This document shows, one piece after another, positions 5,958-37,785 of a stretch of 64,000 bases of DNA. The notes below the pieces were generated by a model. It did not search any database and was not told where the DNA came from. It saw only the letters and a program-made list of their open reading frames with translations. The stretch comes from an uncultured delta proteobacterium. GTDB taxonomy: Bacteria > Desulfobacterota > Binatia > UBA9968. The stretch spans positions 192,001 through 256,000 of the forward strand of contig CAVSHR010000009.1 of assembly GCA_963727625.1 (NCBI GenBank). The letters run 5' to 3'. How positions within the stretch are numbered: the first letter of the stretch is position 1; every line of letters starts with the position of its first letter. Position numbers and translations under genes: made by a program.

Positions 5958-6123
5958 TCAATAATGGCGGAGAGTCTAGTCGAGAATATGGCTAGATCAC
6001 TGACGTGGAATTCATCGTGCCGTGAAGGGTTTAAATTTGACTGAAAAATAACAGCTGCGCCGATGGGCTAGGCAGAGTTCAAACCTAGTCCCATCGGCGC
6101 GCAAGTTCGTTTGTAGAATTCTC

Positions 6124-7167: not shown

Positions 7168-7512
7168 ATCGCTTCTCCTTTCGCTCTCGAATCTTGCATA
7201 AATGGTCCCATCCTACTTTATCCTAGAACTGTGGATTTCTAAGTCAATCACTCGAGGCCGGATTTTTCTCCTGGCTTTTCCATTCCGAAATCTGTGCGGT
7301 GCCGAAGTCCTGCTCAGCACGACGGTCTGCCGCTGGACGCCAGAGCTCAGAACCCGAGAACCGTAGCCCTCGGCTCCTGACCAGAGTTGTTTAGAATGAC
7401 TCATCAAATTGGGACTTAGAATAATCAACTGCCGGACGGATTCCGCGAAGGTGGAAAACTGTTTTCGATTGCGATAAGTGAAAACTCTATACTTTGAGGA
7501 TTTGAATCAAGT

Positions 7513-8694: not shown

Positions 8695-8706
8695 AACCTT
8701 TGTTTG

Positions 8707-8766
8707 GAGTCTAGCGTCTCGTGTCTGCTGTTAACGCTGGACGCTAAACCCTGGACGCCAGACTGG
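8707..8766. repeat. Degenerate heptamer inverted-repeat element
   Basis: GAGTCTA GCGTCTC GTGTCTG ... TGGACGC TAAACCC TGGACGC CAGACTG. Confidence 0.6.
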
Positions 8767-8783
8767 AGAAAAAAGGAGCAACT

Positions 8784-9998: not shown

Positions 9999-9999
9999 T

Positions 10000-10084
10000 A
10001 GGCATGAGACGAAAGGCGCGAGCCGTGAGCAAGAAACAGAGTTAGGATCTGACTCGCGCCTCATGCCTCACGACTCACGCCTCG
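10000..10084. repeat. Degenerate heptamer inverted-repeat element
   Basis: AGGCATG AGACGAA AGGCGCG AGCCGTG ... CGCGCCT CATGCCT CACGACT CACGCCT. Confidence 0.65.
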
Positions 10085-10098
10085 ATAGGAGTTAAACC

Positions 10099-11220
10099 AT
10101 GGACTTGTCGTTAACTGAGACCCAGGAAGAATTTAAAAAAGTAGCGGAGGACTTCGTCAAAGCGGAAGTTCCCGCGCACCAGATGACCCAGTGGTACAAG
10201 AACAAGCAAACCTTCCAACCGCAGCTGGTCAAAAAAGCCGCTGGAATCGGCTGGCTCGGCATGATGTTGCCCGAGGAGTACGGCGGTTCCGGCGTGTCAA
10301 CGATGGATTGCGCCGTAGTGTTCGAGGCGTTGGGGCACGGACCCGTTCCCGGGCCGCTTTTCACTTCGGGGGTGCTCAGCGCCCAGATGATTTTCGAAGC
10401 GTGCACCGAAGCACAGAGAAAAGCCTTGTTACCCGCCATTTGCGACGGCTCATCGATCGTTGTGCCCGCGATCACCGATAAGGCCGCCTATTGGGGACCG
10501 GAGGCGGTCGAGACGCGCCTGAGTAAAACTCCCCGCGGCTACCTCATGAACGGCACCAAACGCTTTGTCTTCGATGGCCAAGCAGCGACGAGTTTCCTCT
10601 GTGCCGCGCGCACCGAGGAAGGCAAAGTGGTCTTCTTGCTCGTCGACGCCAAGAGCCCCGGCGTCACGATCACGCCCCACGTCGGATTCTTTGTTTCCGT
10701 CGCCGAAGTGCGTTTCGACAAAGTGGCCGTCGATCCGGCGAATCTGCTTGGTTCGAGCGGCGCAAGCTGGACCACGCTCGAAGCGGCTTTGGACAAAGCC
10801 TTGCCGGTACTCTCCGCCTATCAGGTCGGCGCCACTCAGGAAGTGTTTGACACGACCTGCGAGTACACGCGCACCCGCGTCGTCTTCGGCCAGCCCATCG
10901 GCCGCTTCCAACGCGTGCAGGATCACTGTGTCGATATTTCGATCAATCTCGATATGGCGCGCTGGGCGACCTACGAAACCATATGGCGCATCGACAGCGG
11001 CATGCCAGCCCGCGCCGCGGTGCACGAAGCCAAAGCAACCGCCAGCGACGGTTATTATCACGGGACCAATTATGCGCACATGGTTTGGGCCGGACCCGGC
11101 ACCGACTACAGTCATCCGATGATGGCGCACAGCGTGCTCGCGCACACGCTCTATCAATATTTGGGCACGCCGGGGCACCATAAACGACTGATGATCGACG
11201 CGCTTTATCCCAGAGCGTAA
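10099..11220 (+). CDS. Acyl-CoA dehydrogenase (partner subunit of a probable heteromeric ACAD)
   Basis: LPEEYGG, NGTKRFV, R.VFGQPIGRFQRVQ; lacks TEP..GSD. Confidence 0.88.
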   Translation: MDLSLTETQEEFKKVAEDFVKAEVPAHQMTQWYKNKQTFQPQLVKKAAGIGWLGMMLPEEYGGSGVSTMDCAVVFEALGHGPVPGPLFTSGVLSAQMIFEACTEAQRKALLPAICDGSSIVVPAITDKAAYWGPEAVETRLSKTPRGYLMNGTKRFVFDGQAATSFLCAARTEEGKVVFLLVDAKSPGVTITPHVGFFVSVAEVRFDKVAVDPANLLGSSGASWTTLEAALDKALPVLSAYQVGATQEVFDTTCEYTRTRVVFGQPIGRFQRVQDHCVDISINLDMARWATYETIWRIDSGMPARAAVHEAKATASDGYYHGTNYAHMVWAGPGTDYSHPMMAHSVLAHTLYQYLGTPGHHKRLMIDALYPRA

Positions 11221-19085: not shown

Positions 19086-19107
19086 CTAAACCCACGGAGA
19101 ATTGAAA

Positions 19108-19920
19108 ATGACCGATCTAAAATTTATCACCGCCAACATCGACGAATCCGCCGGCATCGCCTGGCTGACGCTCAACCGTCCGGAAAAGAAAAACGCACTG
19201 AGCATCGCCCTGCTCGCCGAGCTTTCGAGCACCCTCCGATCCCTCGCCGAGAACGACAAAATCCGCTGCATCGTCACCGCCGGCGCCGGCGATTCCTACT
19301 CGTCGGGGCGCGACCTCTACGACATGCGCGGGCAGAATAACCGCCGGCGCACGCGCGGTTTCGGCGGCGTTGCCGAGATTGTCGATATTATGCGCAAGCT
19401 GCCGCAAGTCACGGTCGCCAAAGTGCGCGGCTGGTGCCTGGGCGGCGGCTTGGCGTTGATCAACGGCCACGACCTCGTGATCAGCGGAGACAATGCAAAA
19501 TTCGGCATGCCCGAAGTGATCCGCGGCAGCTACGGCGCCACGGCGACGCCGTCGTTATTTCACGCCGGCATCCCGTTCAAGAAGGCGTTCTTTATTTCCC
19601 TCACCGGCAGGAATCTTACCGGCGCAGAAGCCGAACGGGTTGGATTGGTTTCGGATGTCGTGCCCGAAAAAGAGCTCGACAGTTATGTCGACACGCTGGC
19701 GCAAGAGCTCGCCAGCCGCAACGGTGCGACCCTGGAAAACGCCAAGATCGCCGCCTACATGCAAAAAGATTTACCCTTCGACATGGCCCTGCGCGCCGAC
19801 GACTTGGTGCAGCACCGGCTGCGCTACTATACCAACCCGCTGAGCGACGTCGAAGGCTATCTCCACTCGCAAAAAGGCGGCGCATCGGTCAAATACGTGA
19901 AGCCGGAAGACCGGAAGTAG
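19108..19920 (+). CDS. Enoyl-CoA hydratase/isomerase (crotonase) family
   Basis: LNRPEKKNAL, SSGRDL, GWCLGGG, FGMPE. Confidence 0.9.
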   Translation: MTDLKFITANIDESAGIAWLTLNRPEKKNALSIALLAELSSTLRSLAENDKIRCIVTAGAGDSYSSGRDLYDMRGQNNRRRTRGFGGVAEIVDIMRKLPQVTVAKVRGWCLGGGLALINGHDLVISGDNAKFGMPEVIRGSYGATATPSLFHAGIPFKKAFFISLTGRNLTGAEAERVGLVSDVVPEKELDSYVDTLAQELASRNGATLENAKIAAYMQKDLPFDMALRADDLVQHRLRYYTNPLSDVEGYLHSQKGGASVKYVKPEDRK

Positions 19921-19949
19921 TCCTGCTAGCGTCAAATTTGGCTGCTGCG

Positions 19950-20198
19950 TTAAATTCCCAGCCCTCGAACCCACGCGATTCGAGAAAACAGACTTTTTCT
20001 TAATCGCATTGAGTTTTCTCCTGGTTTGACGCAGCCAGTGCAGGTAATTTGATCGCGCCTGGCTGGACCCTGGTCTTTGGCATAGCCGACGAGCAGCAAG
20101 TGTTTTGAGCAAGTCGATCGATTGCACCGGAAGCAAACTCCACCAGCGAATTTTTCAAATCGCGCTGAACAAACGTGGCAGATCCAGGGAATGATCAT
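19950..20198 (-). CDS. Small Cys-rich putative zinc-binding protein
   Basis: CHVC, CFRC, CSKH, CTGC; ATGA overlap with alkA. Confidence 0.55.
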   Translation of the reverse strand: MIIPWICHVCSARFEKFAGGVCFRCNRSTCSKHLLLVGYAKDQGPARRDQITCTGCVKPGENSMRLRKSLFSRIAWVRGLGI

Positions 20199-20884
20199 TT
20201 AGTTTTTTGAAGATTCTCCAGCGATCGCCAGAGATACCAGGACGCTATCGAGCGATAGGGCCGCCAGCTCTCGGCGACACGCGGCAGCAGTGTCGTGGAT
20301 TTTCGATTCTTGCCGTAGAGCAGCCGCGCGGCGCGCTGCAGACCGGCGTCGCCAAGAGCCAACACGTCCAGCCGCTTTAAGCCGAACAGTAAAAACATCT
20401 CGGCCGTCCAACGGCCGATGCCGGGGACGATGACAAGTTTTTCGATCACTGCTTCGTCGTCAAGGGCCGTGATGGCGGAAAATTCCAGCCGGCCGTCGCT
20501 CACATGCAATGCCAATTCGCGGATGTAGCGCGCCTTCGCCTTCGACAGTCCGGCGCCGCGTAACTGCTCATCGGCCAGGGTAAGAACTTTGGCGGCTTGA
20601 CACGGCATGCCGACCAGCGCGCCGACTCGCTGTTTGATCGTCGCGGCGGCCTTGACGGACAGTTGCTGGCTGATGATCGAATTCGCCAGCATGTGAAACG
20701 GCTCGAACTCGCGCTCGGCGAGCGGGCATTGGCCGTGAATGGCGATCAGCCGTTTCATGATTGGATCGCGCCGAGCCAAGTGACGCTCGGCTTTACGAAT
20801 CACTTTCACAACTTCGGCTCGAGCTTGTTCGGAATTAGATTGGTGGGCGATCGCGGTGGCGAGCATCACAGTCGGCTTCGCCAC
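20195..20884 (-). CDS. alkA: DNA-3-methyladenine glycosylase II (HhH-GPD)
   Basis: SIISQQLSVKAA, VPGIGRWTAEMFL, D.GLQR, WRPYRS.ASWYLW. Confidence 0.88.
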   Translation of the reverse strand: MAKPTVMLATAIAHQSNSEQARAEVVKVIRKAERHLARRDPIMKRLIAIHGQCPLAEREFEPFHMLANSIISQQLSVKAAATIKQRVGALVGMPCQAAKVLTLADEQLRGAGLSKAKARYIRELALHVSDGRLEFSAITALDDEAVIEKLVIVPGIGRWTAEMFLLFGLKRLDVLALGDAGLQRAARLLYGKNRKSTTLLPRVAESWRPYRSIASWYLWRSLENLQKTK

Positions 20885-23292
20885 TATTTGAGCACCTGGC
20901 GCTCGACGAGATCCTGGATCTCCGCGCTCGACATGCCGAGAATTTCGCCGAGCACGGTTTCATTGTCTTCGCCTGCGACATGGGTAAAGCTGCGCGGCGC
21001 AAAGGTTTGCCCCGCCAGGCGCACCGAGGGGCCGGCGCGGGTCACCCAACCGATCTGCGGATGAAAGACTTCGCGGGCAAAGCCCCGCTCGCGCAAATGC
21101 GGGTCGCGATAGAGATCCTCGGCGGTTTGCACCGCGCCGGCGGCGATCCCCTGGCGCTGCAACATCATCATCAGCTGATGCGGCGTATATTGGGCGGTCC
21201 ACTTACCGATCCAATAATCCAACTCCTCGCGATAGGCCACCCGGGAGGCCGGTTCGGCAAATCGGTGGTCCGACAACCACTCGCGATGGCCGGCAAACTC
21301 GCAGAAACGAATCCACTCCTCTTGGGTTTCGATCACAATCGCACACCAGCGATCGTCTCCCTTGCAACGGTAACAGCCATGCGGTGCGGCGGTGGCGCTG
21401 AAGTTTCCTTGGGGCTGAGGCTCACGGCCATTGACCAAATACTCTAATAACGCCGGTCCGATCATCGACGCAGCGGTTTCCGCCTGGGAGATATCGATAT
21501 ACTGACCATTGCCAGTGCGCTGGCGGTAGTGCAGCGCGGCAAGAATCGCCAGCGTGCCGTAGGACGGCGCGATGTAATCAGGAAATGCCGTCTGGCAACC
21601 GGCGCCCGGACGCTCGATTCCCGGATCGCGCCACAGGTAGGCCATGCCGGAATAAGACATGAGAATCGGCCCAAAGCTCACATAGTCGCGCCGCGGCCCG
21701 GTCTGGCCGAATGCTTGGAGGCTCGCCATGATGATCTCGGGCCGGATCTCCTTCACCCGCGCATAATCGAGGCCCCAGCTTGCCATTACCCGCGCGCTAA
21801 AATTCTCGACGACCACGTCGGACTTGGCGATGAGCCGTTTTGCCAGCGCGACTCCTTCCGGGTGTTTCATATCGATGACGATCCGGCGCCGTCCGCGATT
21901 GCTCTCGAGATCAGAGGCGATTTGGAACTTCTGGCCGCGCTGCGGACTGCGCGCGACGCGGCTGGCTTCGATCGAAATAACCTCGGCCCCATGCTCGGCC
22001 AGTAGCGCCCCGAGCGCGGGGCCGACGACGCCGGTGGGAAAACTGATGACGCGGACGCCTTCGAAAAGATTGTTTCCTGCCGCCGGTGCCGCGTTAACGC
22101 CGCGGCTTTCGTTAAGCCAGGCCGATGGTTGGGCCAGCTCCCGCCCGATTTGCACCTGGTGCTCGCCGAGCAGTGGCGCGCCCCGCTCGATGCGCCAAGG
22201 ACTCTCGGAGAACCGATAAGGATCGCCTGGAAAGCTATGGCGGCCGAGACGCGGGTGGTCCACTGTGGCGAGGTAGTTTCGGTGTTGCGTCTGTTCGTCG
22301 GCGAGAAATGCGCTCGGCGGGTTGATTGGTGCGGCCGCCAGTCGCAGTGACTGAAACTCCTCGAAGAATTTTTTGACTTCGTAATTGAGCGTTCGCGCTT
22401 CCACGAGCCGGTCGATTTGCTCGCGCAGCGGAAACCGGTTCTGGACGTTTTCCAGCTTGGGATCGAGCAGTTCCGACGGCCGGCCCAGCCATTCGACAAA
22501 GCGGCGCCAGTGATCCGGCTGGTTGACAAAGATACGCGCATAGCCGTCGCGGCATTGGTAGGTTTCCGCAACCGTGGTTGACTGACTGTGGCCGGTGCGC
22601 GCAGGGATTTCACCGGTGGTGCTGTAACGCGTCATGATGCGCAGAAACGGGTCGGCGGCCAGGACATCTTGCAGCGACACCTCGACATGCTCGCCTCGCC
22701 CGGTGACGCGACGGTTGTACAGCGCCACTAGAGTACCGAAGGCGGCGTGCACCGAGCCCAAATGGTACGCGACGTCGCATGGTCCCATAAGCGGCGCCCG
22801 GCTCGGATGGCCGCAAAGATTCATCAAACCGCCCATCGCGAAAGCCACGATGTTAAGGGCTTTGAAATCGCGATAGGGCCCTGATTGCCCGAAGCCGTTG
22901 ATCGAGGTTAAGACCAGTGTTGGATTGACGGACTGAAGAGTCAGATAGCCAAGGCCGTGACGGTCAAGGTAGCCGGCCGGTTTGTCCTCAATGAGCACAT
23001 CCGCTTCATGGACAAGATTGCGCAGGTGCCGGCGGTCCCCATCGTCTTCCAAGTTTAAGACGGTGCCCCGTTTGTTCGTGTGAAAAGACGCGAAAGAAAG
23101 ACTTTGCTCGGGATCGGCCTGGTCGTTTTTAAACGGCCCTTCCGCCCGCATGGGATCGCCGCCGGGCGGTTCGATCAGAATCACTTCGGCGCCGAGGTTG
23201 GCGAGCAACAGGCCGCAGTATCCGCCCATCCGTCCCGTATAATCCAGGACGCGCAGACCGCTCAGCGCCCCCTTGGCGGCTTCAGTAGACAT
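20884..23292 (-). CDS. Fused two-domain family III CoA transferase (BbsE/BbsF-like)
   Basis: Two CaiB repeats in 802 aa; catalytic Asp seen only in the C-terminal half (FPDY). Confidence 0.88.
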   Translation of the reverse strand: MSTEAAKGALSGLRVLDYTGRMGGYCGLLLANLGAEVILIEPPGGDPMRAEGPFKNDQADPEQSLSFASFHTNKRGTVLNLEDDGDRRHLRNLVHEADVLIEDKPAGYLDRHGLGYLTLQSVNPTLVLTSINGFGQSGPYRDFKALNIVAFAMGGLMNLCGHPSRAPLMGPCDVAYHLGSVHAAFGTLVALYNRRVTGRGEHVEVSLQDVLAADPFLRIMTRYSTTGEIPARTGHSQSTTVAETYQCRDGYARIFVNQPDHWRRFVEWLGRPSELLDPKLENVQNRFPLREQIDRLVEARTLNYEVKKFFEEFQSLRLAAAPINPPSAFLADEQTQHRNYLATVDHPRLGRHSFPGDPYRFSESPWRIERGAPLLGEHQVQIGRELAQPSAWLNESRGVNAAPAAGNNLFEGVRVISFPTGVVGPALGALLAEHGAEVISIEASRVARSPQRGQKFQIASDLESNRGRRRIVIDMKHPEGVALAKRLIAKSDVVVENFSARVMASWGLDYARVKEIRPEIIMASLQAFGQTGPRRDYVSFGPILMSYSGMAYLWRDPGIERPGAGCQTAFPDYIAPSYGTLAILAALHYRQRTGNGQYIDISQAETAASMIGPALLEYLVNGREPQPQGNFSATAAPHGCYRCKGDDRWCAIVIETQEEWIRFCEFAGHREWLSDHRFAEPASRVAYREELDYWIGKWTAQYTPHQLMMMLQRQGIAAGAVQTAEDLYRDPHLRERGFAREVFHPQIGWVTRAGPSVRLAGQTFAPRSFTHVAGEDNETVLGEILGMSSAEIQDLVERQVLK

Positions 23293-26778: not shown

Positions 26779-27516
26779 ATGAAAAATTCCTGGGCAACGG
26801 TGCCCGTCGATCAAAGCCCCATGCGTTTATACTTAAGCGAACCGGATGGCAGCGGTCCGTTTCCGGCCATCGTGGTGATCCAGAATCAGGATGGAGTCAC
26901 CGAGTTCACTCAAGAAATGACCCGCAGAGTCGCCGAGGCCGGTTACGTCGCCATCGCCCCGGAGCTCTATCATCGCGAAGGCGAGCCTAAATCTCCCGAA
27001 CAGGTCGCCAACCTAAAACACATGCGCCGGGACGCCAATGTTCTCAACGACATCAACGCCACGATCACTTTTTTGCGCGGCTGCGCCAACGTCAACACTG
27101 CAAAGCTGGGCATCGTCGGCTTCTGCATGGGCGGGCGCGTGGCGTTTTTAATGGCGGCAGCGGGCCCTGCGTTCAGCGCCGCAGTGGATTTTTACGGCGG
27201 TGGCGTCTATTCGCAATGGGGCGACCGCCCGGCGCCGTCGGAGCTTGTGGCCAATGTTTCCTGCCCGCTACAGGGCCACTTCGGTGAGCTCGATAAGAAT
27301 CCGCCGCCCGATGAGATGCGCAAGCTCGACGCCGAGTTGACTCGATTGGCCAAGGAACATGAGTTCTTTTTCTACGACGACTGCCCGCACGGCTTTAACA
27401 AAAAAGGCTGGAAAGGCTATCGGCCCGAGGCTGACGCCATATCTTGGGCACGGAGTCTGGAATTTTTCTCCAAACACCTGGGCGACACGGTTGCCAAAAA
27501 ATCTGCCGCCGGCTAA
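26779..27516 (+). CDS. Dienelactone hydrolase family protein
   Basis: GIVGFCMGG nucleophile; FYG; PHGF. Confidence 0.9.
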   Translation: MKNSWATVPVDQSPMRLYLSEPDGSGPFPAIVVIQNQDGVTEFTQEMTRRVAEAGYVAIAPELYHREGEPKSPEQVANLKHMRRDANVLNDINATITFLRGCANVNTAKLGIVGFCMGGRVAFLMAAAGPAFSAAVDFYGGGVYSQWGDRPAPSELVANVSCPLQGHFGELDKNPPPDEMRKLDAELTRLAKEHEFFFYDDCPHGFNKKGWKGYRPEADAISWARSLEFFSKHLGDTVAKKSAAG

Positions 27517-30885: not shown

Positions 30886-31296
30886 TCAAACTATTTTCTG
30901 CGCGCTGAGGATTGGCTCATAGAGCATCTGGATGACGATGCCGTCGGGATCGGCACAGTAAAAAGACGCGCTGCCGTCGCGATGGACTTTGAACGGATGG
31001 ACGATCGCGACGCCTTTGGCGCGAAACTCCTGCTCCAGCGCCTCGACCCGCTCGATACTCTCGACCAGAAAGCCTAGATGGTCGAGCTGGCTTTCTGCGC
31101 CATGCTGAAACAGATTGGGCGAAACCTCATGAAACGCTAAATTATCCCAGCCCAAAGAGAGATAAACGTTACGCGGATCGGGTTCCCAAACAGTATCCAT
31201 GCCGAGAACATCTCGATAAAAACTCTTTGCCCGCGCCGCGTCGCGCACCTTGAGTGCGATATGGCGCATGCCCTTAAGACCGCTGATACGGCTCAT
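30886..31296 (-). CDS. VOC/glyoxalase family protein
   Basis: RHIALKV.D..AKSFY..VLG, LDHLGF, FYCADPDG. Confidence 0.85.
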   Translation of the reverse strand: MSRISGLKGMRHIALKVRDAARAKSFYRDVLGMDTVWEPDPRNVYLSLGWDNLAFHEVSPNLFQHGAESQLDHLGFLVESIERVEALEQEFRAKGVAIVHPFKVHRDGSASFYCADPDGIVIQMLYEPILSAQKIV

Positions 31297-31390
31297 GCTT
31301 CGGACTATAGCACAACGGGGCAAAATTGCAGGCCTCAGCGCTACGTTGCACCCCTTGCGAGCGCCAGATAAAAGCGGGATTATTTTCACC

Positions 31391-32452
31391 ATGAAAGAAG
31401 CACGCTGGTGGCATACCGAGACCGACGGCAGGATTCTCTGCACGCTGTGCCCGCGTTTTTGCCGTATCGGCGACGGCCAGGCTGGCTTCTGTTATATTCG
31501 CAAGAACGTCGGCGGAACTCTTTACTCCCTCGGTTACGGCTCCTCCACCGGCTTCGCCATCGATCCCATCGAGAAAAAGCCTCTCAATCATTTTTTGCCG
31601 GGCAGTGAAATTTTAAGCTTCGGCACCGCCGGCTGTAACCTGGGCTGCCGTTTTTGCCAGAACTGGAGCATCAGCAAAGCGAAGCTGGACGAAGCCCAAA
31701 GCGTAAACACGCTGCCGGAAGAGGTCATCAAACTCGCCCTCAAACAAAAAGTGCCAAGCATCGCTTTCACCTACAACGATCCGGTAATCTGGGGCGAATT
31801 CGTCATCGACATCTCGCGCTTGGCGCGCGAGCACGGCCTTAAAAGTGTGATGGTCACTGCCGGTTACATCACCCCGGAGGCGCGCCCGGAAGTTTTTCGC
31901 TATATCGACGCCGCCAACGTCGACCTCAAAGCCTTTACCGAGCGTTTCTATCACCGCTTGACCTTTTCTCACCTCGATCCGGTGCTCGACACGCTCAAAT
32001 GGCTTAAACAGGAAACCGACATCTGGTTTGAGATCACCAATCTCATGATTCCCGGAGAAAACGACGACCCCGATGAAACCCTGCGGTTAGCATCGTGGGT
32101 GGTTAAAAACTTGGGCGATTCGGTGCCGCTCCACTTCACCGCCTTTCACCCCGACTTCAAGCTGACGGACAGACCGCCGACGCCAGCCGCCCTGCTCAGG
32201 CGGGCCAGACAGATCGCCCTCTCGGTCGGGGTTAAATTCTGCTACGTCGGCAACGTCCACGATAGCGAGGGGCAGACAACCTTCTGCCCCGCCTGCCATC
32301 GAGTTTTGATCCGCCGTTCATGGCATGCAATTCTTCAGAACAACCTCGACGGGAATTGCTGTCCCTGCGGTGAAATCATTCCAGGTTATTTCAGTCCCGA
32401 CCGGAACTCTGCACAAAGACGGCAACCCAGGCGACGCTTGCTGCCGAACTGA
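31391..32452 (+). CDS. amrS: AmmeMemoRadiSam system radical SAM enzyme
   Basis: CTLCPRFC, DPIEKKPL.HF, GCNLGCRFCQNW, AFTYNDP, ANVDLKAF, YVGNV. Confidence 0.9.
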   Translation: MKEARWWHTETDGRILCTLCPRFCRIGDGQAGFCYIRKNVGGTLYSLGYGSSTGFAIDPIEKKPLNHFLPGSEILSFGTAGCNLGCRFCQNWSISKAKLDEAQSVNTLPEEVIKLALKQKVPSIAFTYNDPVIWGEFVIDISRLAREHGLKSVMVTAGYITPEARPEVFRYIDAANVDLKAFTERFYHRLTFSHLDPVLDTLKWLKQETDIWFEITNLMIPGENDDPDETLRLASWVVKNLGDSVPLHFTAFHPDFKLTDRPPTPAALLRRARQIALSVGVKFCYVGNVHDSEGQTTFCPACHRVLIRRSWHAILQNNLDGNCCPCGEIIPGYFSPDRNSAQRRQPRRRLLPN

Positions 32453-32522
32453 CGAGCGCCCGCGCAACCTCGCTGGCGCAATTTGGCGATTTGTGTTTTA
32501 AAGAAGACTCTTGTCTACTCCT

Positions 32523-34922
32523 ATGGCAAAAGCAAAAAAACGCATTCGAAAGTTTCGCCCGCACCTCGACATCCTCGAGGATATCAGCGCCCTCATCAGC
32601 CATTCGTACGACTTGCAGGAAACCCTCGACAGTATCGTCGCCACGGTGGCCGACCGCATGCAAACCGAAGTTTGCTCGATCTATATCCTCGAACGCGACA
32701 AGAAGCGCTTAACCCTTCGCGCGACGATGGGTTTGGATCCGGAATCCGTGGGCAAAGTTTCCATGGATACGAGGGAGGGCTTAACAGGATTGGTCATTGA
32801 GCGGATGAAGCCGGTCATGGTGGCCGACACACTCGCCCACCCGCGCTACAAGTACTTTCCTGAAACCCATGAGGAGCATTTTCACTCTTTTCTCGGCGTG
32901 CCGCTGATGGACAGAAAATTGCCCCTCGGCGTCTTGGTCGTCCAGACCTCGCGTCGGCGGGAATTTTCCCGCGACGAAATCCGCCTACTGGTGACAATTT
33001 CCGCGCAGGTGGCGAGCATCATTGTTCAGGCCCGGCTGGCCGAGTCGCTCAAGAGCAAAGAACAGGAGCGCAAGGATTTTCAGAAGCGCATGAACGAAGC
33101 GATGCGCAAACTACGCTCCTACGAGGGAAGTCGCCGGGAAAAGACCGCTAAATCCAAACAGCGCTGGCGCGGCCGATTAAACGGCCTGGCGGCATCGCCC
33201 GGCTTCGGTCGCGGCAAGGCTTTCGTTTTGCAACCTCGCATGGATTTGAGCGCGATTAAAAAGAAAAAAACGCGAAACCCGGAGCGCGAGATGGAGCGCT
33301 TTCGCGGCGCAGTTGAGCGCGGCATCGAGCAGGTCAACGTGGTCAAGAATCGGATGAATCAATTGATCTCGAAAGAGGAAATGGCCATCTTCGATGTTTA
33401 TCGTTTGATTCTTGAAGATCCCTCGATCATTCAGCAGATCGAATCGCAAATTTTCGACGAGGGCTACGTTGCGGATTTTGCGGTGAAAGTCGTTTTCGAG
33501 CACTATCTGGAGTCAATCGGGAATATCGACGACAATTACCTGCGCGAACGCACAACCGACGTCAAAGACGCGGCGCAACGGCTGCTGGAAAACCTGAACG
33601 GTATGTCGGGACAACAGTATAATATTCCTGATGACGCGGTTTTGGTCGCCGAGGATCTCTCGCCCGCCGATTTGAGCATGCTCGAAGGCGATAAATTCAA
33701 AGGCATCGCGCTGGCCACCGGCGGCGTGACCTCACATGCATCGATTCTGGCTAAGTCCTTTGAGATTCCCAGCGTCGTCGCTATCGAGGAGTTGATGGAG
33801 TCAGTCCACCAGGGCGACATGCTGATCATCGACGGCAACGCCGGCAGCGTGCATGTCAATCCGAATACCGAGGTTATCCGCGAGTATGATCGCCTGGAGC
33901 GGGATTACGCGGAGTTAAATCGCGAATTGGGAGAACTCAAAAACTTGCCGGCGGAAACCACCGACGGTCATCGCGTGTCGCTCTACGCCAACATCGGCTT
34001 GCTCAGCGACGTCGCCTTCGCACAACTGCACGGCGCGCAAGGGGTCGGACTTTACCGCACCGAGATTCCGTTTTTGTCCCACCGGGATTTTCCCAGCGAA
34101 GAAGAGCAATACTCGCTTTACAGCCGAGTCGTCGAAGGCATGGCGGGGAAACCGGTAACGATTAGAACCCTGGATATCGGCGCCGATAAGTACCCTACCT
34201 ACATGCGCAGCGTTGCCGCTGAGCCAAATCCGTTCTTAGGTTGGCGCTCGATCCGGATCTCCCTGGAAGTAGAAGAAATTTTTAAAACCCAATTGCGTGC
34301 GATTTTGCGCGTCGGCAATCGCGGTCGCGTGCGCATGCTGATCCCGATGATTTGCAGCCTGGAAGAGATCCTAAAAGTTAAGGAAATCCTCGCCGAAACA
34401 AAGAATGAGCTCGAACACGAAGGCACCCCGCACGATCGTCAGATGGAGCTTGGAATCATGGTGGAAATTCCCGCCGCAGTCCAGCTTGCCGACCGATTTC
34501 TGCGCGAAGTTGATTTTTTGAGCATCGGCACCAACGACCTCATCCAGTACATTTTGGCTGTCGATCGCAGCAATCGAAAAGTCGCAAACCTCTACGAGCC
34601 GTTGCACCCGGCGGTCCTTTCGGCATTGAACTCAACCATCGAAGCGGGCAAGCGGGAAGGCAAACGGATAGGGCTGTGCGGCGAAATGGCCGGCGACCCC
34701 CTATGCGCCTTGCTTCTATTGGGTATGGGATTGGAAGAGTTTAGCATGGGCTCGCTTTATCTTCCGGCCGTCAAAAAAGCCATTCGCTCGATCAGCTATC
34801 GGGCGGCCAAAGCGGCGGCCGAGATCGTCCTTAAGATGGATACCATCGGGGAAATCAAGCGCTATTTATTTGAGCAAATGCGTCAGCTTGGCATGGTCGA
34901 GCTCTTGGAAATGTATCACTAG
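32523..34922 (+). CDS. ptsP: GAF-domain phosphoenolpyruvate-protein phosphotransferase (EI-Ntr)
   Basis: N-terminal GAF domain; TSHASILA (phospho-His); GLYRTE; RTLDIGADK; SIGTNDLIQY; LCGEMAGD. Confidence 0.93.
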   Translation: MAKAKKRIRKFRPHLDILEDISALISHSYDLQETLDSIVATVADRMQTEVCSIYILERDKKRLTLRATMGLDPESVGKVSMDTREGLTGLVIERMKPVMVADTLAHPRYKYFPETHEEHFHSFLGVPLMDRKLPLGVLVVQTSRRREFSRDEIRLLVTISAQVASIIVQARLAESLKSKEQERKDFQKRMNEAMRKLRSYEGSRREKTAKSKQRWRGRLNGLAASPGFGRGKAFVLQPRMDLSAIKKKKTRNPEREMERFRGAVERGIEQVNVVKNRMNQLISKEEMAIFDVYRLILEDPSIIQQIESQIFDEGYVADFAVKVVFEHYLESIGNIDDNYLRERTTDVKDAAQRLLENLNGMSGQQYNIPDDAVLVAEDLSPADLSMLEGDKFKGIALATGGVTSHASILAKSFEIPSVVAIEELMESVHQGDMLIIDGNAGSVHVNPNTEVIREYDRLERDYAELNRELGELKNLPAETTDGHRVSLYANIGLLSDVAFAQLHGAQGVGLYRTEIPFLSHRDFPSEEEQYSLYSRVVEGMAGKPVTIRTLDIGADKYPTYMRSVAAEPNPFLGWRSIRISLEVEEIFKTQLRAILRVGNRGRVRMLIPMICSLEEILKVKEILAETKNELEHEGTPHDRQMELGIMVEIPAAVQLADRFLREVDFLSIGTNDLIQYILAVDRSNRKVANLYEPLHPAVLSALNSTIEAGKREGKRIGLCGEMAGDPLCALLLLGMGLEEFSMGSLYLPAVKKAIRSISYRAAKAAAEIVLKMDTIGEIKRYLFEQMRQLGMVELLEMYH

Positions 34923-34959: not shown

Positions 34960-34988
34960 TTGATTTTTTGACCGATTGGGGTTATGTT
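34960..34988 (+). promoter_or_regulatory. Putative sigma70 promoter of the boxB-like operon
   Basis: TTGATT-N17-TATGTT. Confidence 0.5.
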
Positions 34989-34992
34989 AAAG

Positions 34993-35010
34993 TTCGAACG
35001 ATCGTTCGAA
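34993..35010. promoter_or_regulatory. Perfect 18-bp palindrome, probable repressor operator
   Basis: TTCGAACGATCGTTCGAA between the -10 box and the RBS. Confidence 0.7.
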
Positions 35011-35028: not shown

Positions 35029-36135
35029 ATGATCAAAATCTCTACTTTCGATGACTGGATCGAATATTTTCGTCAATGGCAAAAGGACATTGGTTACGAC
35101 CCCGCGCTTCTAGGCAATTACAAATTCGAAACCAAGTTAGGCGAGTTGCACTCCTCTGAGATCGAATTCGGCGATTTCAAGGGGCAACCGAAGTGGCAAC
35201 GGCTGACGCAGATCCCCAATCAATCGATCCGCGACGCATTGATGAATTTAATTGTTTATCAAGGGGACACCGAGTTCGCTTCGGTTGAACAGCAAAAGAA
35301 CCTGCTCGACACGGCGCCGACGGACTACGATCGCCAGGCGCTGATTCGCGTCAACAGTGAAGAAATGCGCCATGGCTGGCAGATGTGTTATCTGCTGGTC
35401 AATTACTTCGGCGATTCGGGCAAGTTGGAAGCGCGAAAACTTTTGGAGCGCCGTGCTTTTAGAGGCGATCGTTTGCTCGGATCGTTCAACGCCCCGGTCA
35501 ACAACTGGCTCGATTTTTTTACCTATACTGAATTCGTCGACCGTGACGGCAAATACCAGCTCACTATGCTATCCCACTCTTCCTTTGCGCCGCTGGCTGA
35601 AAGCGTCACGGCCATGCTTAAGGAAGAGTTTTTTCACATGTTTACCGGCCACACGGGTTTGACCCGTATCCTTCGGTCCGGGAAAATCCCGATTCCGATC
35701 GTGCAAAAATATTTCAACAAGTGGTTATCCACCGCTTACGACCTGTTCGGCACCACTCGGTCGTCTTCGGCTCACTGGGCTTACACCTGGGGTCTGAAAG
35801 GCCGGATGGACGAGCATGAAGCAACGGCGCCTGCGGACAAGGAAAAGCTCAACGATTTGGCGCGCAGCCATTATTTGCTCGAAAGCGCCAAACTCATCGA
35901 GCAGTTGAATCAACTGGTGCCGGCGGATCACCCCAAACTCTATGCTCCGGATTTGAAGTTCAACCGCTCCATCGGTGAGTTTGTCGGCAAACCTTACGGC
36001 GTCACTGGCGAACTGATGTCTCCCGCAGCTTACACGAAGCATGTGGCCGAAGTTCTGCCTACCGAGGCCGATGAAAAAATCCTGGCGGAGATCGTTAAAG
36101 GCAAGGACTGGGTCGCGCAAATGCAGCTCAACTAA
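35029..36135 (+). CDS. BoxB/PaaA-type ferritin-like diiron aromatic-CoA epoxidase (short BoxB-like form)
   Basis: QGDTEFASVEQQ, EEMRH, DRDGKYQL, EEFFHMFTG diiron ligand motifs. Confidence 0.85.
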   Translation: MIKISTFDDWIEYFRQWQKDIGYDPALLGNYKFETKLGELHSSEIEFGDFKGQPKWQRLTQIPNQSIRDALMNLIVYQGDTEFASVEQQKNLLDTAPTDYDRQALIRVNSEEMRHGWQMCYLLVNYFGDSGKLEARKLLERRAFRGDRLLGSFNAPVNNWLDFFTYTEFVDRDGKYQLTMLSHSSFAPLAESVTAMLKEEFFHMFTGHTGLTRILRSGKIPIPIVQKYFNKWLSTAYDLFGTTRSSSAHWAYTWGLKGRMDEHEATAPADKEKLNDLARSHYLLESAKLIEQLNQLVPADHPKLYAPDLKFNRSIGEFVGKPYGVTGELMSPAAYTKHVAEVLPTEADEKILAEIVKGKDWVAQMQLN

Positions 36136-36198
36136 CTTCGGTGCGGAGATGTTGCATCTCAGTTCGTACACTAGTAATTAGGACTCAAGGAGAAACCG

Positions 36199-36522
36199 GT
36201 GAGCCGAGTCTGTCTTATCTGTCAGAATATCGATTGCAAGTCCCGCGGTTCGGAACAGCTCATGGCCGAACTTCAAAAGCGCGTCGCCGCCAAAGGATTG
36301 ACCGATGTCGAGGTCAAGCCCTACATGTGCTTTGGCGCTTGCCAAGAGGGACCCAATATCGTTCTTTACCCGGAAAAAAGTTGGTATGCCAAAGTGAAGG
36401 TTGAAGATCTCGACGAAATCACGGATCATCTCGCTGGCGGCCCCCATGTCCAACGGCTCGATACCATCGATTCATCCCTGAAAGAACTGATTTACCAACT
36501 CCTTGATACGGGGGTCATTTAG
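36199..36522 (+). CDS. Thioredoxin-like [2Fe-2S] ferredoxin (NuoE C-domain-like)
   Basis: CQNIDC ... CFGAC.EGP.IV.YP..WY; GGAG RBS before GTG. Confidence 0.88.
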   Translation: MSRVCLICQNIDCKSRGSEQLMAELQKRVAAKGLTDVEVKPYMCFGACQEGPNIVLYPEKSWYAKVKVEDLDEITDHLAGGPHVQRLDTIDSSLKELIYQLLDTGVI

Positions 36523-36525
36523 CCC

Positions 36526-37785
36526 ATGGAAGGTATTCTATTCCCTCACGGCGTTCCCGAAGGCCGTGAGGGACTGGAGAAATACCGTGACCGCGGCGGC
36601 TACGAGGCCCTAGCCAAGGCCGTTAAAGGGCCGCGCGAAGAAATCATCAAAGTCGTCTCGGATGCCGGCCTGCGCGGTCGCGGCGGCGCTGGATTTCCGA
36701 CCGGAAAAAAGTGGCAGTTCACGCTCGAAGCGCCGGGGGAGCCTCGTTACCTGGTGCTGAATGGCGGTGAGGACGAGCCGGGTAGCAAGAAGGACCGGGT
36801 ACTTTTGGAAAATCTGCCTCACCTGGTTATCGAAGGCACAATCCTCGGCTCCTACGCAATCGGTGCTGCGAAGGCCTACCTGTATATTAACGCGCGCTAT
36901 GAAGTCGCGATGAAAAGCATTAACGACGCACTGGCTGAAGCACAAGGCGCGGGTTACTGGGGGCGAAAAATTCTCGGCAGCGATTTCAGTCTCGATATAG
37001 AAGTTGTTTCCGCGCCGCATAACTATGTGGCCGGTGAGGACACGGCCGTGCTCGAGGTCCTCGAAGGGAAAAAGCCCTGGCCCAGACAAAAGCCGCCATT
37101 TCCGGTGACTGTCGGATTGTTCGGCAAACCGACGTCGGTAAATAACGTCGAGACATTGGCCAACGTGGCGCCGATTCTGTTGAAAGGCGCAAACGGGTAC
37201 CGCAGCTTCGGCACGGCCGAGAGCACGGGCACGATGATCTTTTCGCTCAATGACGACGTCAATCGACCCGGCGTCTACGAGCTCCCCTTCGGCACGCCGT
37301 TGCGCTATCTGATCGAAGAATGCGGCGGCGGCATCAACGGCGGCAAACAAATCAAAGCCATCATGCCCGCAGCCCCTTCATCTGCCTTTCTGCCGCCGGA
37401 CAAGATTGACACTCCGCTCGATCATAATTCGATGCGCGACGCCGGCTCTGCGTTGGGATGCGGCGTGGTGCGGCTGATCGCCGAAGGCAGCTGCATCGTC
37501 GAAGAAGTTTTAAAGATTGCCGAGTTTTTTACCGCCGAATCATGCGGCCAGTGCCCCGCCTGCCGCATGGAGACTAATACGCTGGCGATGATGATGAAAA
37601 AAGTCCAAGCCGGACAGGGCGGCCAGCCGATTCTCGAGCAGTTCGGCAAGATCCTCGCCTTTAACAAGGGAAAGGGCTTCTGCAATCTCATCGCCATGCC
37701 CGGTCCGCCGATCGAAAGCGCGCTCAAACTATTCCCCGGAGATTTTGAATCCCATCTGAGCACCGGTAAATGTCCGGTGAATTAA
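36526..37785 (+). CDS. Stand-alone NuoF-like NAD(P)H-binding FMN/[4Fe-4S] protein
   Basis: GLRGRGGAGFPTGKKW, EPGSKKDR, YVAGEDTA, KPPFP, NNVETL, ESCGQCPACR...FC. Confidence 0.9.
   Translation: MEGILFPHGVPEGREGLEKYRDRGGYEALAKAVKGPREEIIKVVSDAGLRGRGGAGFPTGKKWQFTLEAPGEPRYLVLNGGEDEPGSKKDRVLLENLPHLVIEGTILGSYAIGAAKAYLYINARYEVAMKSINDALAEAQGAGYWGRKILGSDFSLDIEVVSAPHNYVAGEDTAVLEVLEGKKPWPRQKPPFPVTVGLFGKPTSVNNVETLANVAPILLKGANGYRSFGTAESTGTMIFSLNDDVNRPGVYELPFGTPLRYLIEECGGGINGGKQIKAIMPAAPSSAFLPPDKIDTPLDHNSMRDAGSALGCGVVRLIAEGSCIVEEVLKIAEFFTAESCGQCPACRMETNTLAMMMKKVQAGQGGQPILEQFGKILAFNKGKGFCNLIAMPGPPIESALKLFPGDFESHLSTGKCPVN

Follow-up and report, generated by a model that had tools for sequence, protein, structure and literature searches.

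The diiron ring epoxidases of the Box and Paa types act on CoA thioesters and form the entry to the 'hybrid' aerobic pathways for aromatic acids, and the only reductases known to us for these enzymes are BoxA and the FNR-type PaaE. The NuoF module, to our knowledge, otherwise belongs to complex I, to hydrogenases and to formate dehydrogenases. The stretch of DNA analysed here (64,000 nucleotides, termed the window) raises the question of whether a protein of the second kind can serve one of the first: at positions 35029-37785, three co-directional plus-strand genes encode a BoxB-like diiron protein, a [2Fe-2S] ferredoxin and a NuoF-like flavoprotein. The close spacing described in the first-pass annotation was confirmed. 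The gene for a compact BoxB-like diiron oxygenase (35029..36135, + strand, ATG start, 368 aa) is separated by 63 nt from that for a thioredoxin-like [2Fe-2S] ferredoxin (36199..36522, + strand, GTG start, 107 aa), which is followed after 3 nt by the gene for a NuoF-like FMN/[4Fe-4S] flavoprotein (36526..37785, + strand, ATG start, 419 aa). Pfam annotation of the gene calls also bore out what had been said of the surroundings: elsewhere in the window, nuo, hox and fdh genes are absent, as are a further protein of the PaaA/PaaC family and a reductase of the BoxA/PaaE type, and neither PaaB, PaaC or PaaD partners nor HydA- or HydC-like genes occur in it. In this genome the trio is not flanked by CoA ligase, hydratase or aldehyde dehydrogenase genes, and no description of the arrangement was found in literature searches.

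The ferredoxin and flavoprotein genes share a reading frame in the window, with a stop and one codon between them, and a read-through or fusion was considered. The frames differ in several orthologous loci, and the two are separate genes, not one read-through gene. Moreover, since the same three genes are kept in the same order in 28 of 29 related loci (71-93% identity; the contig of the 29th ends just past the ferredoxin), the arrangement is more than chance. The conserved ferredoxin and NuoF linkage on which the first-pass annotation had made its proposal depend was also evident at greater distances. Among 151 sampled genomes of the class, 18 encode the flavoprotein, all of them members of one order, and in 15 of these it adjoins an oxygenase copy of at least 70% identity; one genome of another class carries the trio, its three proteins being 58-61% identical to those described here. 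The order oxygenase-ferredoxin-flavoprotein, with gaps of 3-70 nt, recurs at three levels of divergence (71-93%, 58-61% and 35-38%), the last with a canonical BoxB.

All of the BoxB-type motifs claimed for the 368-residue ferritin-like protein are present (YQGDTEFASVEQQ, EEMRH, DRDG and EEFFH). The protein scored above the gathering threshold of the Pfam family PaaA_PaaC (PF05138; 42.3 bits, threshold 28.5), the family of the diiron acyl-CoA ring epoxidase PaaABC(D)E. Against the NCBIfam BoxB model TIGR03225 it reached 232.8 bits, less than half the equivalog cut-off of 499.1, and the match was split into three stretches, the best of which covered positions 83-255 of the 471-position model. 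It is much nearer to BoxB (182 bits) than to PaaA, to which its similarity is weak (about 30 bits, 21% identity). Relative to BoxB (about 473 aa), the protein is shortened by about 40 residues at the N terminus, by an internal segment and by a portion of the C-terminal region. The predicted structure (pLDDT 92.5) has the same fold as the oxygenase of the BoxAB system of Azoarcus/Aromatoleum evansii, the best Foldseek match being 3pm5_A (E 4e-22, TM (query) 0.90, rmsd 2.2), which is BoxB with bound benzoyl-CoA; the BoxB structures of this system are 3PER, 3PF7, 3PM5 and 3Q1G.

The available text of PMC5489048 gives the diiron ligands of BoxB as Glu120, Glu150, His153, Asp211, Glu240 and His243, and the benzoyl-CoA pocket as Gln116, Thr119, Ser123, Phe193, Phe203/Phe206 and Thr210. 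When the compact oxygenase was aligned to BoxB, all six ligands listed there were found to be kept (E82, E112, H115, D171, E200 and H203), and five of the seven pocket residues were identical (Q78, T81, S85, F153 and F163, for Q116, T119, S123, F193 and F203), the other two being changed from F206 to Y166 and from T210 to V170. The six ligands and the five matching pocket residues, which include the thioester-binding Gln, are invariant across 56 homologue sequences. Together, the alignment and the model lead us to count the BoxB fold, the ligands and the five matching pocket residues as securely predicted features of the compact oxygenase. The family is represented by 4587 database proteins at E 0.001 or better and by 590 confirmed genome loci. 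The second-best solved relative of the oxygenase, SSO1313 of Sulfolobus solfataricus (4MUD; 71 bits, 26% identity), is likewise a trimmed BoxB/PaaA-like protein, with the title 'ring oxidation complex/phenylacetic acid degradation-like protein'. It differs in comprising just 235 aa, the four-helix core alone, and we know of no function assigned to it.

The ferredoxin exceeds the gathering threshold of Pfam 2Fe-2S_thioredx (PF01257; 32.2 bits, threshold 24.8). In 35 sequences its four cysteine ligands (C8, C13, C44 and C48) are invariant, and a C-terminal tail, IYQLLDTGV(I/F), is invariant or nearly so. The best solved matches were the N-terminal domain of HydB and Aquifex aeolicus Fd4 (1F37); with the thioredoxin-like ferredoxins (Fd4, Clostridium pasteurianum type) the protein shares family, size and four cysteine ligands. 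A reading of this protein as NuoE was not borne out: it scored 32.1 bits against TIGR01958, for which the cut-off is 142.4, and matched model positions 73-147 of 148 only, which correspond to the C-terminal thioredoxin-like part without the N-terminal helical domain. The tail, in its general form I(Y/F/T)xxLL(D/T)xG(x)(F/Y/I), is an extra feature relative to these ferredoxins; the alignments to Fd4 and HydB stop before it. It is also found in the ferredoxins of canonical boxCB loci and of acidobacterial loci, and is conserved in all the settings that have a BoxB-type gene as their common neighbour.

The flavoprotein comprises the Pfam domains Complex1_51K, SLBB and NADH_4Fe-4S. This FMN, SLBB and [4Fe-4S] core is shared, at 38-47% identity, with NuoF/Nqo1 and with HydB/NfnB/HoxF/FdsB, and both the FMN loop (GRGGAGFPTGKKW, residues 51-63) and the four [4Fe-4S] (N3) cysteines (C340, C343, C346 and C386) are kept. 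As in HydB, the flavoprotein is preceded by a thioredoxin-like [2Fe-2S] unit, here encoded by a separate gene. In Bfu-type HydB/NfnB a thioredoxin-like domain, the NuoF core and a C-terminal ferredoxin domain lie in one chain, with HydC and HydA as partners; in contrast, the present protein ends at the NuoF core, without the C-terminal ferredoxin domain and its two [4Fe-4S] clusters. The pair also differs from all of these relatives in standing alone, without a NuoE, NuoG, hydrogenase or dehydrogenase partner, its apparent client being the oxygenase. Against TIGR01959 (nuoF) the flavoprotein scored 408.1 bits, below the cut-off of 558.65. A true NuoF that exceeds this cut-off (616.6 bits) is encoded elsewhere on the same contig (C9:437292-438515), and the flavoprotein is thus not the complex I subunit F of the organism. 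In two trees its group stood apart from this NuoF and from that of a second genome (G036), with SH-aLRT values of 96 and 97. The flavoprotein accordingly belongs to a NuoF subfamily separate from that of complex I, and is therefore not a recruited complex I copy.

Upstream of the trio, a putative sigma-70-type promoter was read from the sequence at 34960..34988 (+ strand), consisting of TTGATT (34960-34965), a 17-nt spacer and TATGTT (34983-34988). A TTGAT/TTGAC box recurs at the matching place upstream of related loci; the promoter is presented as putative because the candidate fell below the consensus-scan threshold. The stretch from the -10-like box to the ribosome-binding site contains a perfect 18-bp palindrome, TTCGAACGATCGTTCGAA (34993..35010, no strand assigned), which is a putative operator for a PaaR-like TetR repressor. 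A matching site was present in all 28 related loci scanned, in addition to the window; one further locus (L031) was left out of the scan, its upstream sequence being just 34 nt long and holding the right half of the site only. The available part of PMC6651687 gives the box of PaaR (TTHA0973), the TetR-family repressor of the paa operons of Thermus thermophilus, as CNAACGNNCGTTNG, and the palindrome core CGAACGATCGTTCG fits this box at every position specified there. Matches of the CNAACGNNCGTTNG type number 10 in the genome, and the site before the trio is the only intergenic one. The same palindrome agrees with the LexA pattern of Gram-positive bacteria, CGAAC-N4-GTTCG, of which the genome has only 17 sites against about 7.5 expected. 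A weight matrix of the 30 sites gave no other strong intergenic match, its next-best matches lying inside genes, and the reading as an SOS regulon was rejected.

A near-identical box was found in 14 of 51 acidobacterial-type loci. The operons that it heads begin with a TetR_C_24 regulator, and in the one checked (L045) it precedes a TetR-ECH-ALDH...BoxB-like operon that also contains a ferritin gene. No regulator gene adjoins the trio. The sole PaaR-like TetR of the genome is a TetR_C_24 protein on another contig (C5:1052843-1053547), which is 42% identical to the acidobacterial one and adjoins AhpC and VIT1 genes. The best candidates for the later pathway steps, an ECH-ALDH group (C4) and a ligase-ALDH group (C3), are on other contigs, and the operator was found neither before these nor before the PaaR-like TetR gene.

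The pairing is not confined to compact oxygenases. Three metagenome contigs (L146, L149 and L158) carry boxC, a full-length boxB and then a ferredoxin gene and a NuoF-like gene, where boxA would be expected. In L146 and L158, respectively, both genes exceed NCBI's curated cut-offs (boxC, 758.7 and 742.7 bits against 712.3; boxB, 671.6 and 661.6 bits against 499.1), the NuoF-like genes are 51-56% identical to the flavoprotein described here, and no BoxA-like protein is present among the annotated genes; the four genes of L149 were identified by BLAST and Pfam. The same kind of redox pair therefore stands beside authentic boxCB genes. The flavoproteins most closely related to those linked to boxCB are themselves orphans, encoded next to housekeeping genes. 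The genome-wide search for boxA and paaE that had been called for gave neither: in an assembly rated 98.45% complete, the best BoxA score was 32.2 bits (cut-off 459.2) and PaaE had no match. BoxC was not found in this genome either (best 75.9 bits, cut-off 712.3), which is a difference from the Box pathway. Homologues of the compact oxygenase occur in operons with ECH, ALDH, CoA-ligase and CoA-transferase genes; in a class-mate genome, ECH, BoxB-like and CoA-ligase genes follow one another directly, and some acidobacterial BoxB-like operons adjoin genes for Hcr-like molybdenum enzymes.

From these comparisons we consider it likely that the trio is one operon for a three-component, O2-dependent aryl-CoA oxygenase, with the ferredoxin and flavoprotein as its reductase. 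It is possible, and we hold this as a tentative alternative, that the architecture is as proposed but that the substrate is phenylacetyl-CoA, hydroxy-/amino-/methyl-benzoyl-CoA or some other acyl-CoA, not benzoyl-CoA. The low BoxB equivalog score (232.8 against 499.1) points this way, as do the Tyr and Val that replace F206 and T210 of the published pocket, the lack of BoxC in the genome, the Hcr-like neighbours of some acidobacterial operons, and an operator which, as far as the available account of the Thermus system goes, is of the type that belongs there to PaaR, a regulator that reportedly senses phenylacetyl-CoA. Benzoyl-CoA is favoured by the invariance of five of the seven benzoyl-pocket residues, including the thioester-binding Gln, by a similarity far closer to BoxB than to PaaA, by the absence of PaaB, PaaC and PaaD from the window, and by the occurrence of the same redox pair with authentic boxCB operons.

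Several observations weigh against the favoured reading: the low BoxB score and the two altered pocket positions, the lack of BoxC and of neighbouring CoA ligase, hydratase and aldehyde dehydrogenase genes, the non-catabolic surroundings of the two paralogues in this genome, the orphan relatives of the boxCB-linked flavoproteins, and the following two. In 48 of 51 loci at 59-65% identity to the compact oxygenase, the oxygenase gene has neither a ferredoxin nor a NuoF-like gene within 6 kb of it, and the compact family would therefore usually draw its electrons elsewhere. Moreover, in three congeneric genomes (L109-L111) the oxygenase gene, promoter and operator are deleted, and the ferredoxin and flavoprotein genes are intact with dN/dS values of 0.10-0.19. 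Purifying selection of this kind indicates some use of the pair without the adjacent gene. Two genomes with a BoxB-like gene and an adjacent ferredoxin, but no adjacent NuoF, encode a NuoF-like protein elsewhere (57% and 52% identity), in one case together with ECH, 3HCDH and ALDH genes; three genomes that lack the ferredoxin have NuoF matches of merely 38-43% or none. The ferredoxin and flavoprotein thus travel together, and the pair is not strictly dedicated to the adjacent oxygenase.

These observations could be taken to mean that the pair serves other clients as a general NAD(P)H:ferredoxin oxidoreductase, merely co-located with an oxygenase that another donor reduces. Indeed, the pair is missing from most loci with a compact BoxB homologue, NuoF-like relatives occur as orphans, and in one genome the pair adjoins a phosphofructokinase gene and has no oxygenase in its vicinity. 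We judge this explanation unlikely, given that the gene order recurs with short gaps at three depths of divergence, that a single putative promoter and operator precede the oxygenase gene, and that the three genomes which have lost that gene retain an oxygenase paralogue that the pair could serve. Weaker still, and to our minds very improbable, is the idea that the compact BoxB-like protein is no catabolic epoxidase but a ferritin-like diiron oxidase or peroxidase, which together with the pair would pass electrons from NADH to O2 (or peroxide) as a defence against oxygen or oxidative stress. In its favour, the two paralogues in this genome have stress-type neighbours (Usp, ferritin and rubrerythrin-like genes) and glycolytic ones in place of catabolic genes, L045 contains a ferritin gene, the only PaaR-like TetR has AhpC and VIT1 as neighbours and the trio has no adjoining lower-pathway genes. 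The invariant substrate-pocket residues (as the available text on BoxB lists them) with their thioester-binding Gln, the ECH/ALDH/CoA-ligase/CoA-transferase operons of the homologues and the same redox pair behind authentic boxC-boxB genes all argue against it.

The original proposal, that a complex-I-type diaphorase had been recruited as the epoxidase reductase, is supported with corrections, and none of the three outcomes that it named as refuting was observed. Comparative evidence supports the pair as the reductase, whereas its descent from a complex I copy and its strict dedication to the neighbouring oxygenase do not survive. For the three-component oxygenase that we favour, every step of electron transfer is inferred, as are the substrate, the function of the tail and the regulator. 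NAD(P)H would reduce the FMN of the flavoprotein, and the [4Fe-4S] cluster of the latter would relay the electrons to the thioredoxin-like [2Fe-2S] ferredoxin, which would dock on the compact BoxB-like protein, probably through the conserved C-terminal tail, and reduce the diiron centre. This centre would then activate O2 and epoxidise the ring of benzoyl-CoA or of a closely related compound. Prediction of the oxygenase-ferredoxin complex gave a median score of 0.25 against a mark of 0.32 and no verdict from the tool, and speaks neither for nor against binding. Transcription would probably be held off by a PaaR-like TetR repressor on the 18-bp palindrome and released by aryl-CoA.

As with BoxB, the oxygenase is probably a monomer served by a soluble, transiently binding electron donor. 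In classical BoxAB that donor is BoxA, which the accessible text of PMC4498308 describes as a single NADPH-dependent protein with FAD and two [4Fe-4S] clusters. Here, the ferredoxin and flavoprotein would do the job of BoxA jointly, as two proteins with a predicted FMN, one [4Fe-4S] and one [2Fe-2S] cluster. PaaABC(D)E offers a more distant likeness: the candidate operator is of the type that controls paa genes in Thermus, as the available account of that system describes it, whereas the PaaB, PaaC and PaaD partners are missing from the window and PaaE from the genome.

Newly recognised in this analysis are the candidate PaaR-type operator, the C-terminal tail that the ferredoxins share and the assignment of the flavoprotein to a NuoF subfamily distinct from that of complex I. 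A broader reading, to which we give about an even chance, is that the stand-alone NuoF-family flavoprotein and the tailed thioredoxin-like ferredoxin constitute an unrecognised class of oxygenase reductase, which replaces BoxA in authentic boxCB operons and in the large compact BoxB-like family of soil bacteria (Binatia-like lineages and Acidobacteriota), the tail recognising BoxB-type proteins and the pair serving several paralogous oxygenases in trans. Such service in trans would explain how the pair survives loss of the adjacent gene.

If a NuoF-family flavoprotein does feed the oxygenase, this would be a new use of the module, and a reductase of this type would probably alter both the reductant used by the pathway and its redox potentials. 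The boxC-boxB-ferredoxin-nuoF contigs offer a clean route by which the reductase could be tested with an already known substrate. One survey of the Box pathway, in the portion of PMC10803450 that was available, calls clusters without boxA 'incomplete', and surveys scored on boxA would miss organisms of the present kind. Should the reading as a reductase class hold, aerobic aryl-CoA ring epoxidation in soil would be far commoner than boxA-based surveys suggest.

Three co-directional open reading frames, encoding proteins of 368, 107 and 419 amino acids, occupy nucleotides 35029–37785 of the window, with gaps of 63 and 3 nt between them. The product of the first (35029–36135, forward strand) matches the Pfam family PaaA_PaaC at 42.3 bits; in the NCBIfam BoxB equivalog model it scores 232.8 bits, less than half the cut-off of 499.1. 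The second (36199–36522, forward strand) encodes a thioredoxin-like [2Fe-2S] ferredoxin (PF01257, 32.2 bits), and the third (36526–37785, forward strand) a flavoprotein with all three NuoF domains that scores 408.1 bits in the nuoF model against a cut-off of 558.65. The trio described in the first-pass annotation is thus borne out in its reading frames, spacing and families, and every BoxB-type motif quoted there is present in the oxygenase sequence. Pfam annotation of the gene calls across the whole window revealed no other nuo, hox, fdh, box or paa genes, in agreement with the earlier statement for nuo, hox and fdh. The upstream neighbour of the trio encodes a GAF-domain PtsP, an EI-Ntr-type phosphotransferase (32511–34922, forward strand; 631 bits on PRK11061), and is preceded by an AmmeMemoRadiSam radical SAM gene (31250–32452, forward strand); homologues of the two occur in 15 and 10, respectively, of 29 close loci. 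Far from the trio, at 7513–11220 and 19102–23292, the window carries acyl-CoA genes that include a family III CoA-transferase, two acyl-CoA dehydrogenases, an ECH and an 802-aa double CoA-transferase, and a dienelactone hydrolase gene lies at 26779–27516.

By sequence, the top solved relative of the oxygenase is BoxB from Azoarcus evansii (182 bits; PaaA reaches ∼30 bits). According to PMC5489048, the BoxB iron ligands are Glu120, Glu150, His153, Asp211, Glu240 and His243, while Gln116 hydrogen-bonds the substrate and Thr119, Ser123, Phe193, Phe203/Phe206 and Thr210 surround the benzoyl ring. Alignment to the BoxB residues named there places the diiron ligands of the oxygenase at E82, E112, H115, D171, E200 and H203 and identifies Q78, T81, S85, F153 and F163 as unchanged pocket residues; Phe206 is replaced by Y166 and Thr210 by V170. 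None of the six ligands or the five unchanged pocket residues varies across a 56-homologue alignment, and the model built from that alignment (pLDDT 92.5) superposes best on 3pm5_A, which is BoxB with bound benzoyl-CoA (TM 0.90 over the query, rmsd 2.2, 31% identity). Taken together, the mapping, the invariance and the superposition indicate that the oxygenase, as aligned and modelled, is a BoxB shortened by ∼100 residues that keeps its catalytic core and the greater part of the benzoyl pocket. The protein fails the equivalog test, and it should not be named BoxB outright.

The first-pass annotation regarded the remaining two genes as a complex-I-type diaphorase module recruited as the reductase of the epoxidase. 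The ferredoxin is not a NuoE: with a score of 32 bits (cut-off 142), it aligns only to the C-terminal half of NuoE models. Among solved structures it is closest to the N-terminal domain of HydB (7q4v_B, residues 8–92) and to Aquifex Fd4, and its cysteine pattern C-x4-C…C-x3-C (C8, C13, C44 and C48) is invariant in 35 sequences. The flavoprotein retains the FMN loop at residues 51–63 and the [4Fe-4S] cysteines C340, C343, C346 and C386, and is 38–47% identical alike to complex I NuoF, HydB, NfnB, HoxF and FdsB. A search of 1.84 billion representative proteins gave just four matches of at least 65% identity, all of them fragments; the next best reach 44–49%. Two quick maximum-likelihood trees of NuoF-like proteins were built with a midpoint root and SH-aLRT as the sole support measure, one of 84 rows (with the representatives P0125–P0199 of at least 380 aa, 75 of 150 listed, fragments left out) and one of 42 rows (including 23 representatives picked by hand). 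In both trees, the flavoprotein falls in a group of mostly stand-alone 410–450-aa proteins (support 96 and 97), separate from the group containing the genome's own true NuoF, the nuo-operon NuoF of another genome, an FdsB-like protein and long HydB-like forms. This placement argues against a recruited complex I copy. Stand-alone NuoF-like genes of the same subfamily (43–48% identical to the flavoprotein) are found at ∼5000–6240 on three metagenome contigs, L119, L127 and L131, with no redox partner nearby.

The assembly comprises 6.6 Mb in 15 contigs and is rated 98.45% complete. A search for a separate complex I F subunit located a true NuoF elsewhere on the trio's own contig (616.6 bits, above the cut-off), so the trio flavoprotein is not the only NuoF of the genome. 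A BoxA or PaaE encoded elsewhere, which the first-pass annotation had raised as an alternative reductase, was looked for in the genome and is absent, the best BoxA match scoring 32.2 bits and PaaE giving no match. BoxC is likewise absent from the genome (best match 75.9 bits). Two more compact BoxB paralogues, 55–58% identical to the trio oxygenase, are present. The first (C12:353196–354341, reverse strand; 55% identity) has a ferritin-like gene after it and Usp genes on its flanks; the second (C5:230334–231443, forward strand; 58% identity) comes after PFK, GAPDH and CBS-domain genes and lies near sigma-54 activator, rubrerythrin-like and Usp genes. Neither has a ferredoxin or NuoF-like neighbour, and both neighbourhoods look like a stress or hypoxia setting, not catabolism. 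At C2:257563–265264 (L106), the genome also encodes a 580-aa NuoE-NuoF fusion that adjoins genes for a 2Fe-2S/4Fe-4S protein, a molybdopterin oxidoreductase, a MobA-like protein and an aldehyde:ferredoxin oxidoreductase; this locus is probably an NAD-linked formate dehydrogenase-type complex.

A pattern search of species genomes gave 600 matches, of which 590 encode an oxygenase relative, and the best 80 of these 590 were analysed. Twenty-nine loci at 71–93% identity, most of them from MAGs titled Candidatus Binatia or Deltaproteobacteria, all carry the ferredoxin, and 28 of them the flavoprotein; the 29th contig stops just past the ferredoxin. The other 51, at 59–65% identity, are mostly from Acidobacteriota. 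The survey of short BoxB homologues called for by the first-pass annotation upholds the pair among the close relatives. Within 6 kb of the oxygenase in these 51 loci, no complete NuoF-like gene is present, and three loci (L059, L060 and L070) have a ferredoxin. In L059, a decayed ferredoxin and NuoF-like pair (8852–9787) lies 1.7 kb 3′ of the BoxB-like gene (60% identity), the NuoF-like remnant having lost residues ∼56–272 by internal deletion. In the nearest oxygenase relative (93% identical; L040:6001–7105, 1105 nt) the best aligned segment spans only 267 residues, which suggests a frameshift, genuine or due to assembly error. The flavoprotein (E 1e-130 or better) was detected in 18 of 151 evenly sampled genomes of the class, all from the window's own order (8/8, 7/8 and 2/2 genomes per family, plus the window's genome), and in none of the 132 genomes from the remaining 16 families. 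An oxygenase copy of at least 70% identity adjoins it on the same contig in 15 of these 18. One genome from a different class of the phylum also has the trio, with all three proteins 58–61% identical. The linkage of ferredoxin and NuoF-like genes to the oxygenase is thus conserved in other genomes, and the trio is a real, conserved operon.

Metagenome contigs were scanned with P0131, the nearest stand-alone NuoF-like representative, giving 30 loci of at least 5 kb. In three (L146, L149 and L158) BoxB-type, ferredoxin and NuoF-like genes are consecutive. In L146 and L158 these follow boxC (758.7 and 742.7 bits; cut-off 712.3) and the boxB is full-length (473 and 471 aa; 671.6 and 661.6 bits; cut-off 499.1), with no BoxA-like protein among the annotated genes; L149 has the identical four-gene set by BLAST and Pfam. 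The other 27 loci have no BoxB-type and ferredoxin neighbours, and in three of four annotated loci lacking BoxB-type neighbours an RlmL/THUMP-type methyltransferase gene comes next after the NuoF-like gene. The boxC-boxB-ferredoxin-nuoF contigs provide the strongest evidence that the redox pair may do the job of BoxA.

In the L060 and L070 genomes, where the ferredoxin adjoins the BoxB-like gene and no NuoF is nearby, a NuoF-like protein (57% and 52% identity) is encoded elsewhere. In one of them its gene comes after a second ferredoxin gene and a PFK gene; in the other, ECH and 3HCDH genes come next after it and an ALDH gene lies opposite. Three genomes without the ferredoxin have ordinary NuoF matches at 38–43% only, or none. 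Although the numbers are small (2/2 versus 0/3 genomes), this suggests that ferredoxin and flavoprotein travel together. At 5407–8396 of locus L168 (G347:C4:877001–893000), a phosphofructokinase gene runs directly into ferredoxin and NuoF-like genes, in that order, with no oxygenase nearby; in the window's genome, PFK also precedes the paralogue on contig 5.

The last ten residues of the ferredoxin, I(Y/F/T)xxLL(D/T)xG(x)(F/Y/I), show little or no variation across the 35-sequence alignment. The same pattern is found in ferredoxins of the acidobacterial loci, the distant-class trio, the trans pair and the three boxC-boxB contigs. The alignments to Fd4 and HydB end ahead of this tail. Because a BoxB-type protein is the neighbour common to the tailed ferredoxins, we infer that the tail may be a docking element for the oxygenase.

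In three genomes of one genus (G332, G276 and G292; loci L109–L111) the oxygenase gene is gone, along with its promoter and operator. The deletion has an identical left junction in all three and is ancestral; L111 retains a 48-residue C-terminal oxygenase remnant. The ferredoxin and flavoprotein genes are intact, and pairwise dN/dS values (NG86) of 0.15–0.19 for the flavoprotein and 0.10–0.13 for the ferredoxin are much like those of four trio-keeping congeners (0.11–0.19 and 0.05–0.15). As dS is ∼0.5 between the most distant pair, selection on the two genes has continued since the oxygenase was lost, and the intact pair under purifying selection is therefore useful without an adjacent oxygenase. 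Each of the three genomes retains an oxygenase paralogue (57–58% identity) that the pair might serve; however, similar paralogues occur in genomes without any NuoF-like gene. One more genome of the genus has no flavoprotein at all.

A perfect 18-bp palindrome, TTCGAACGATCGTTCGAA, lies at 34993–35010, between a −10-like box and the ribosome-binding site. Its core fits CNAACGNNCGTTNG, the box that PMC6651687 gives for the TetR repressor PaaR (TTHA0973) of Thermus paa operons, and the palindrome is thus a putative PaaR-type operator. All 28 related loci scanned have a matching site ahead of the oxygenase gene (L031, with 34 nt of upstream sequence and only the right half visible, was excluded), and of ten box matches in the genome the trio site is the sole intergenic one. 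Sakamoto and co-workers, in 2011, are said to have identified phenylacetyl-CoA as the PaaR effector. The only PaaR-like TetR of the genome (TetR_C_24; 42% identical to the acidobacterial operon regulator) is encoded at C5:1052843–1053547, in a row with AhpC-type peroxiredoxin and VIT1 iron-transporter genes (C5:1051459–1053547 for the whole row).

A near-identical box, GAACGAACGTTCGA, is present in 14 of the 51 acidobacterial-type loci, 16 of which have TetR homologues. In the one locus checked, L045, it lies 143 nt 5′ of a TetR_C_24 gene, the first of an operon that continues with genes for ECH, ALDH, a UDG-superfamily protein, ferritin, ECH, the BoxB-like protein and ECH, with xanthine-dehydrogenase-family (Hcr-like) genes coming next. 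Locus L065 has CoA-transferase and 3HCDH genes in addition, and a class-mate genome has consecutive ECH, BoxB-like and AMP-forming CoA ligase genes. In the window's genome, the best candidates for the later steps are encoded in trans. Contig 4 has an ECH gene (C4:795101–795892; product 57–58% identical to the operon ECHs) with an ALDH gene after it, possible stand-ins for BoxC and BoxD, and contig 3 has a CoA ligase gene paired with one for an ALDH; no operator precedes either set. Operon contexts, putative operator and pocket all indicate an aryl-CoA substrate, most simply benzoyl-CoA, although its identity is less certain than the mechanism.

BoxA is described in PMC4498308 as a NADPH-using FAD protein with two [4Fe-4S] clusters that makes only transient contact with monomeric BoxB, and a Box-cluster survey classes clusters without boxA as incomplete (PMC10803450). 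A literature search, which covered few subscription journals, turned up no account of a NuoF-type reductase serving BoxB or any diiron oxygenase. The boxC-boxB-ferredoxin-nuoF contigs, the putative PaaR-type operator, the ferredoxin tail, the placement of the NuoF subfamily and the oxygenase-loss genomes are new. Overall, the trio is a variant on a known type of enzyme system. It would work in the manner of BoxAB. Its oxygenase lies below the BoxB equivalog cut-off, and members of the NuoF and thioredoxin-like ferredoxin families would stand in for BoxA. In the three-component mechanism that we propose, and consider reasonably likely, a two-protein FMN/[4Fe-4S]/[2Fe-2S] chain would take the place of BoxA and feed the BoxB-like oxygenase.
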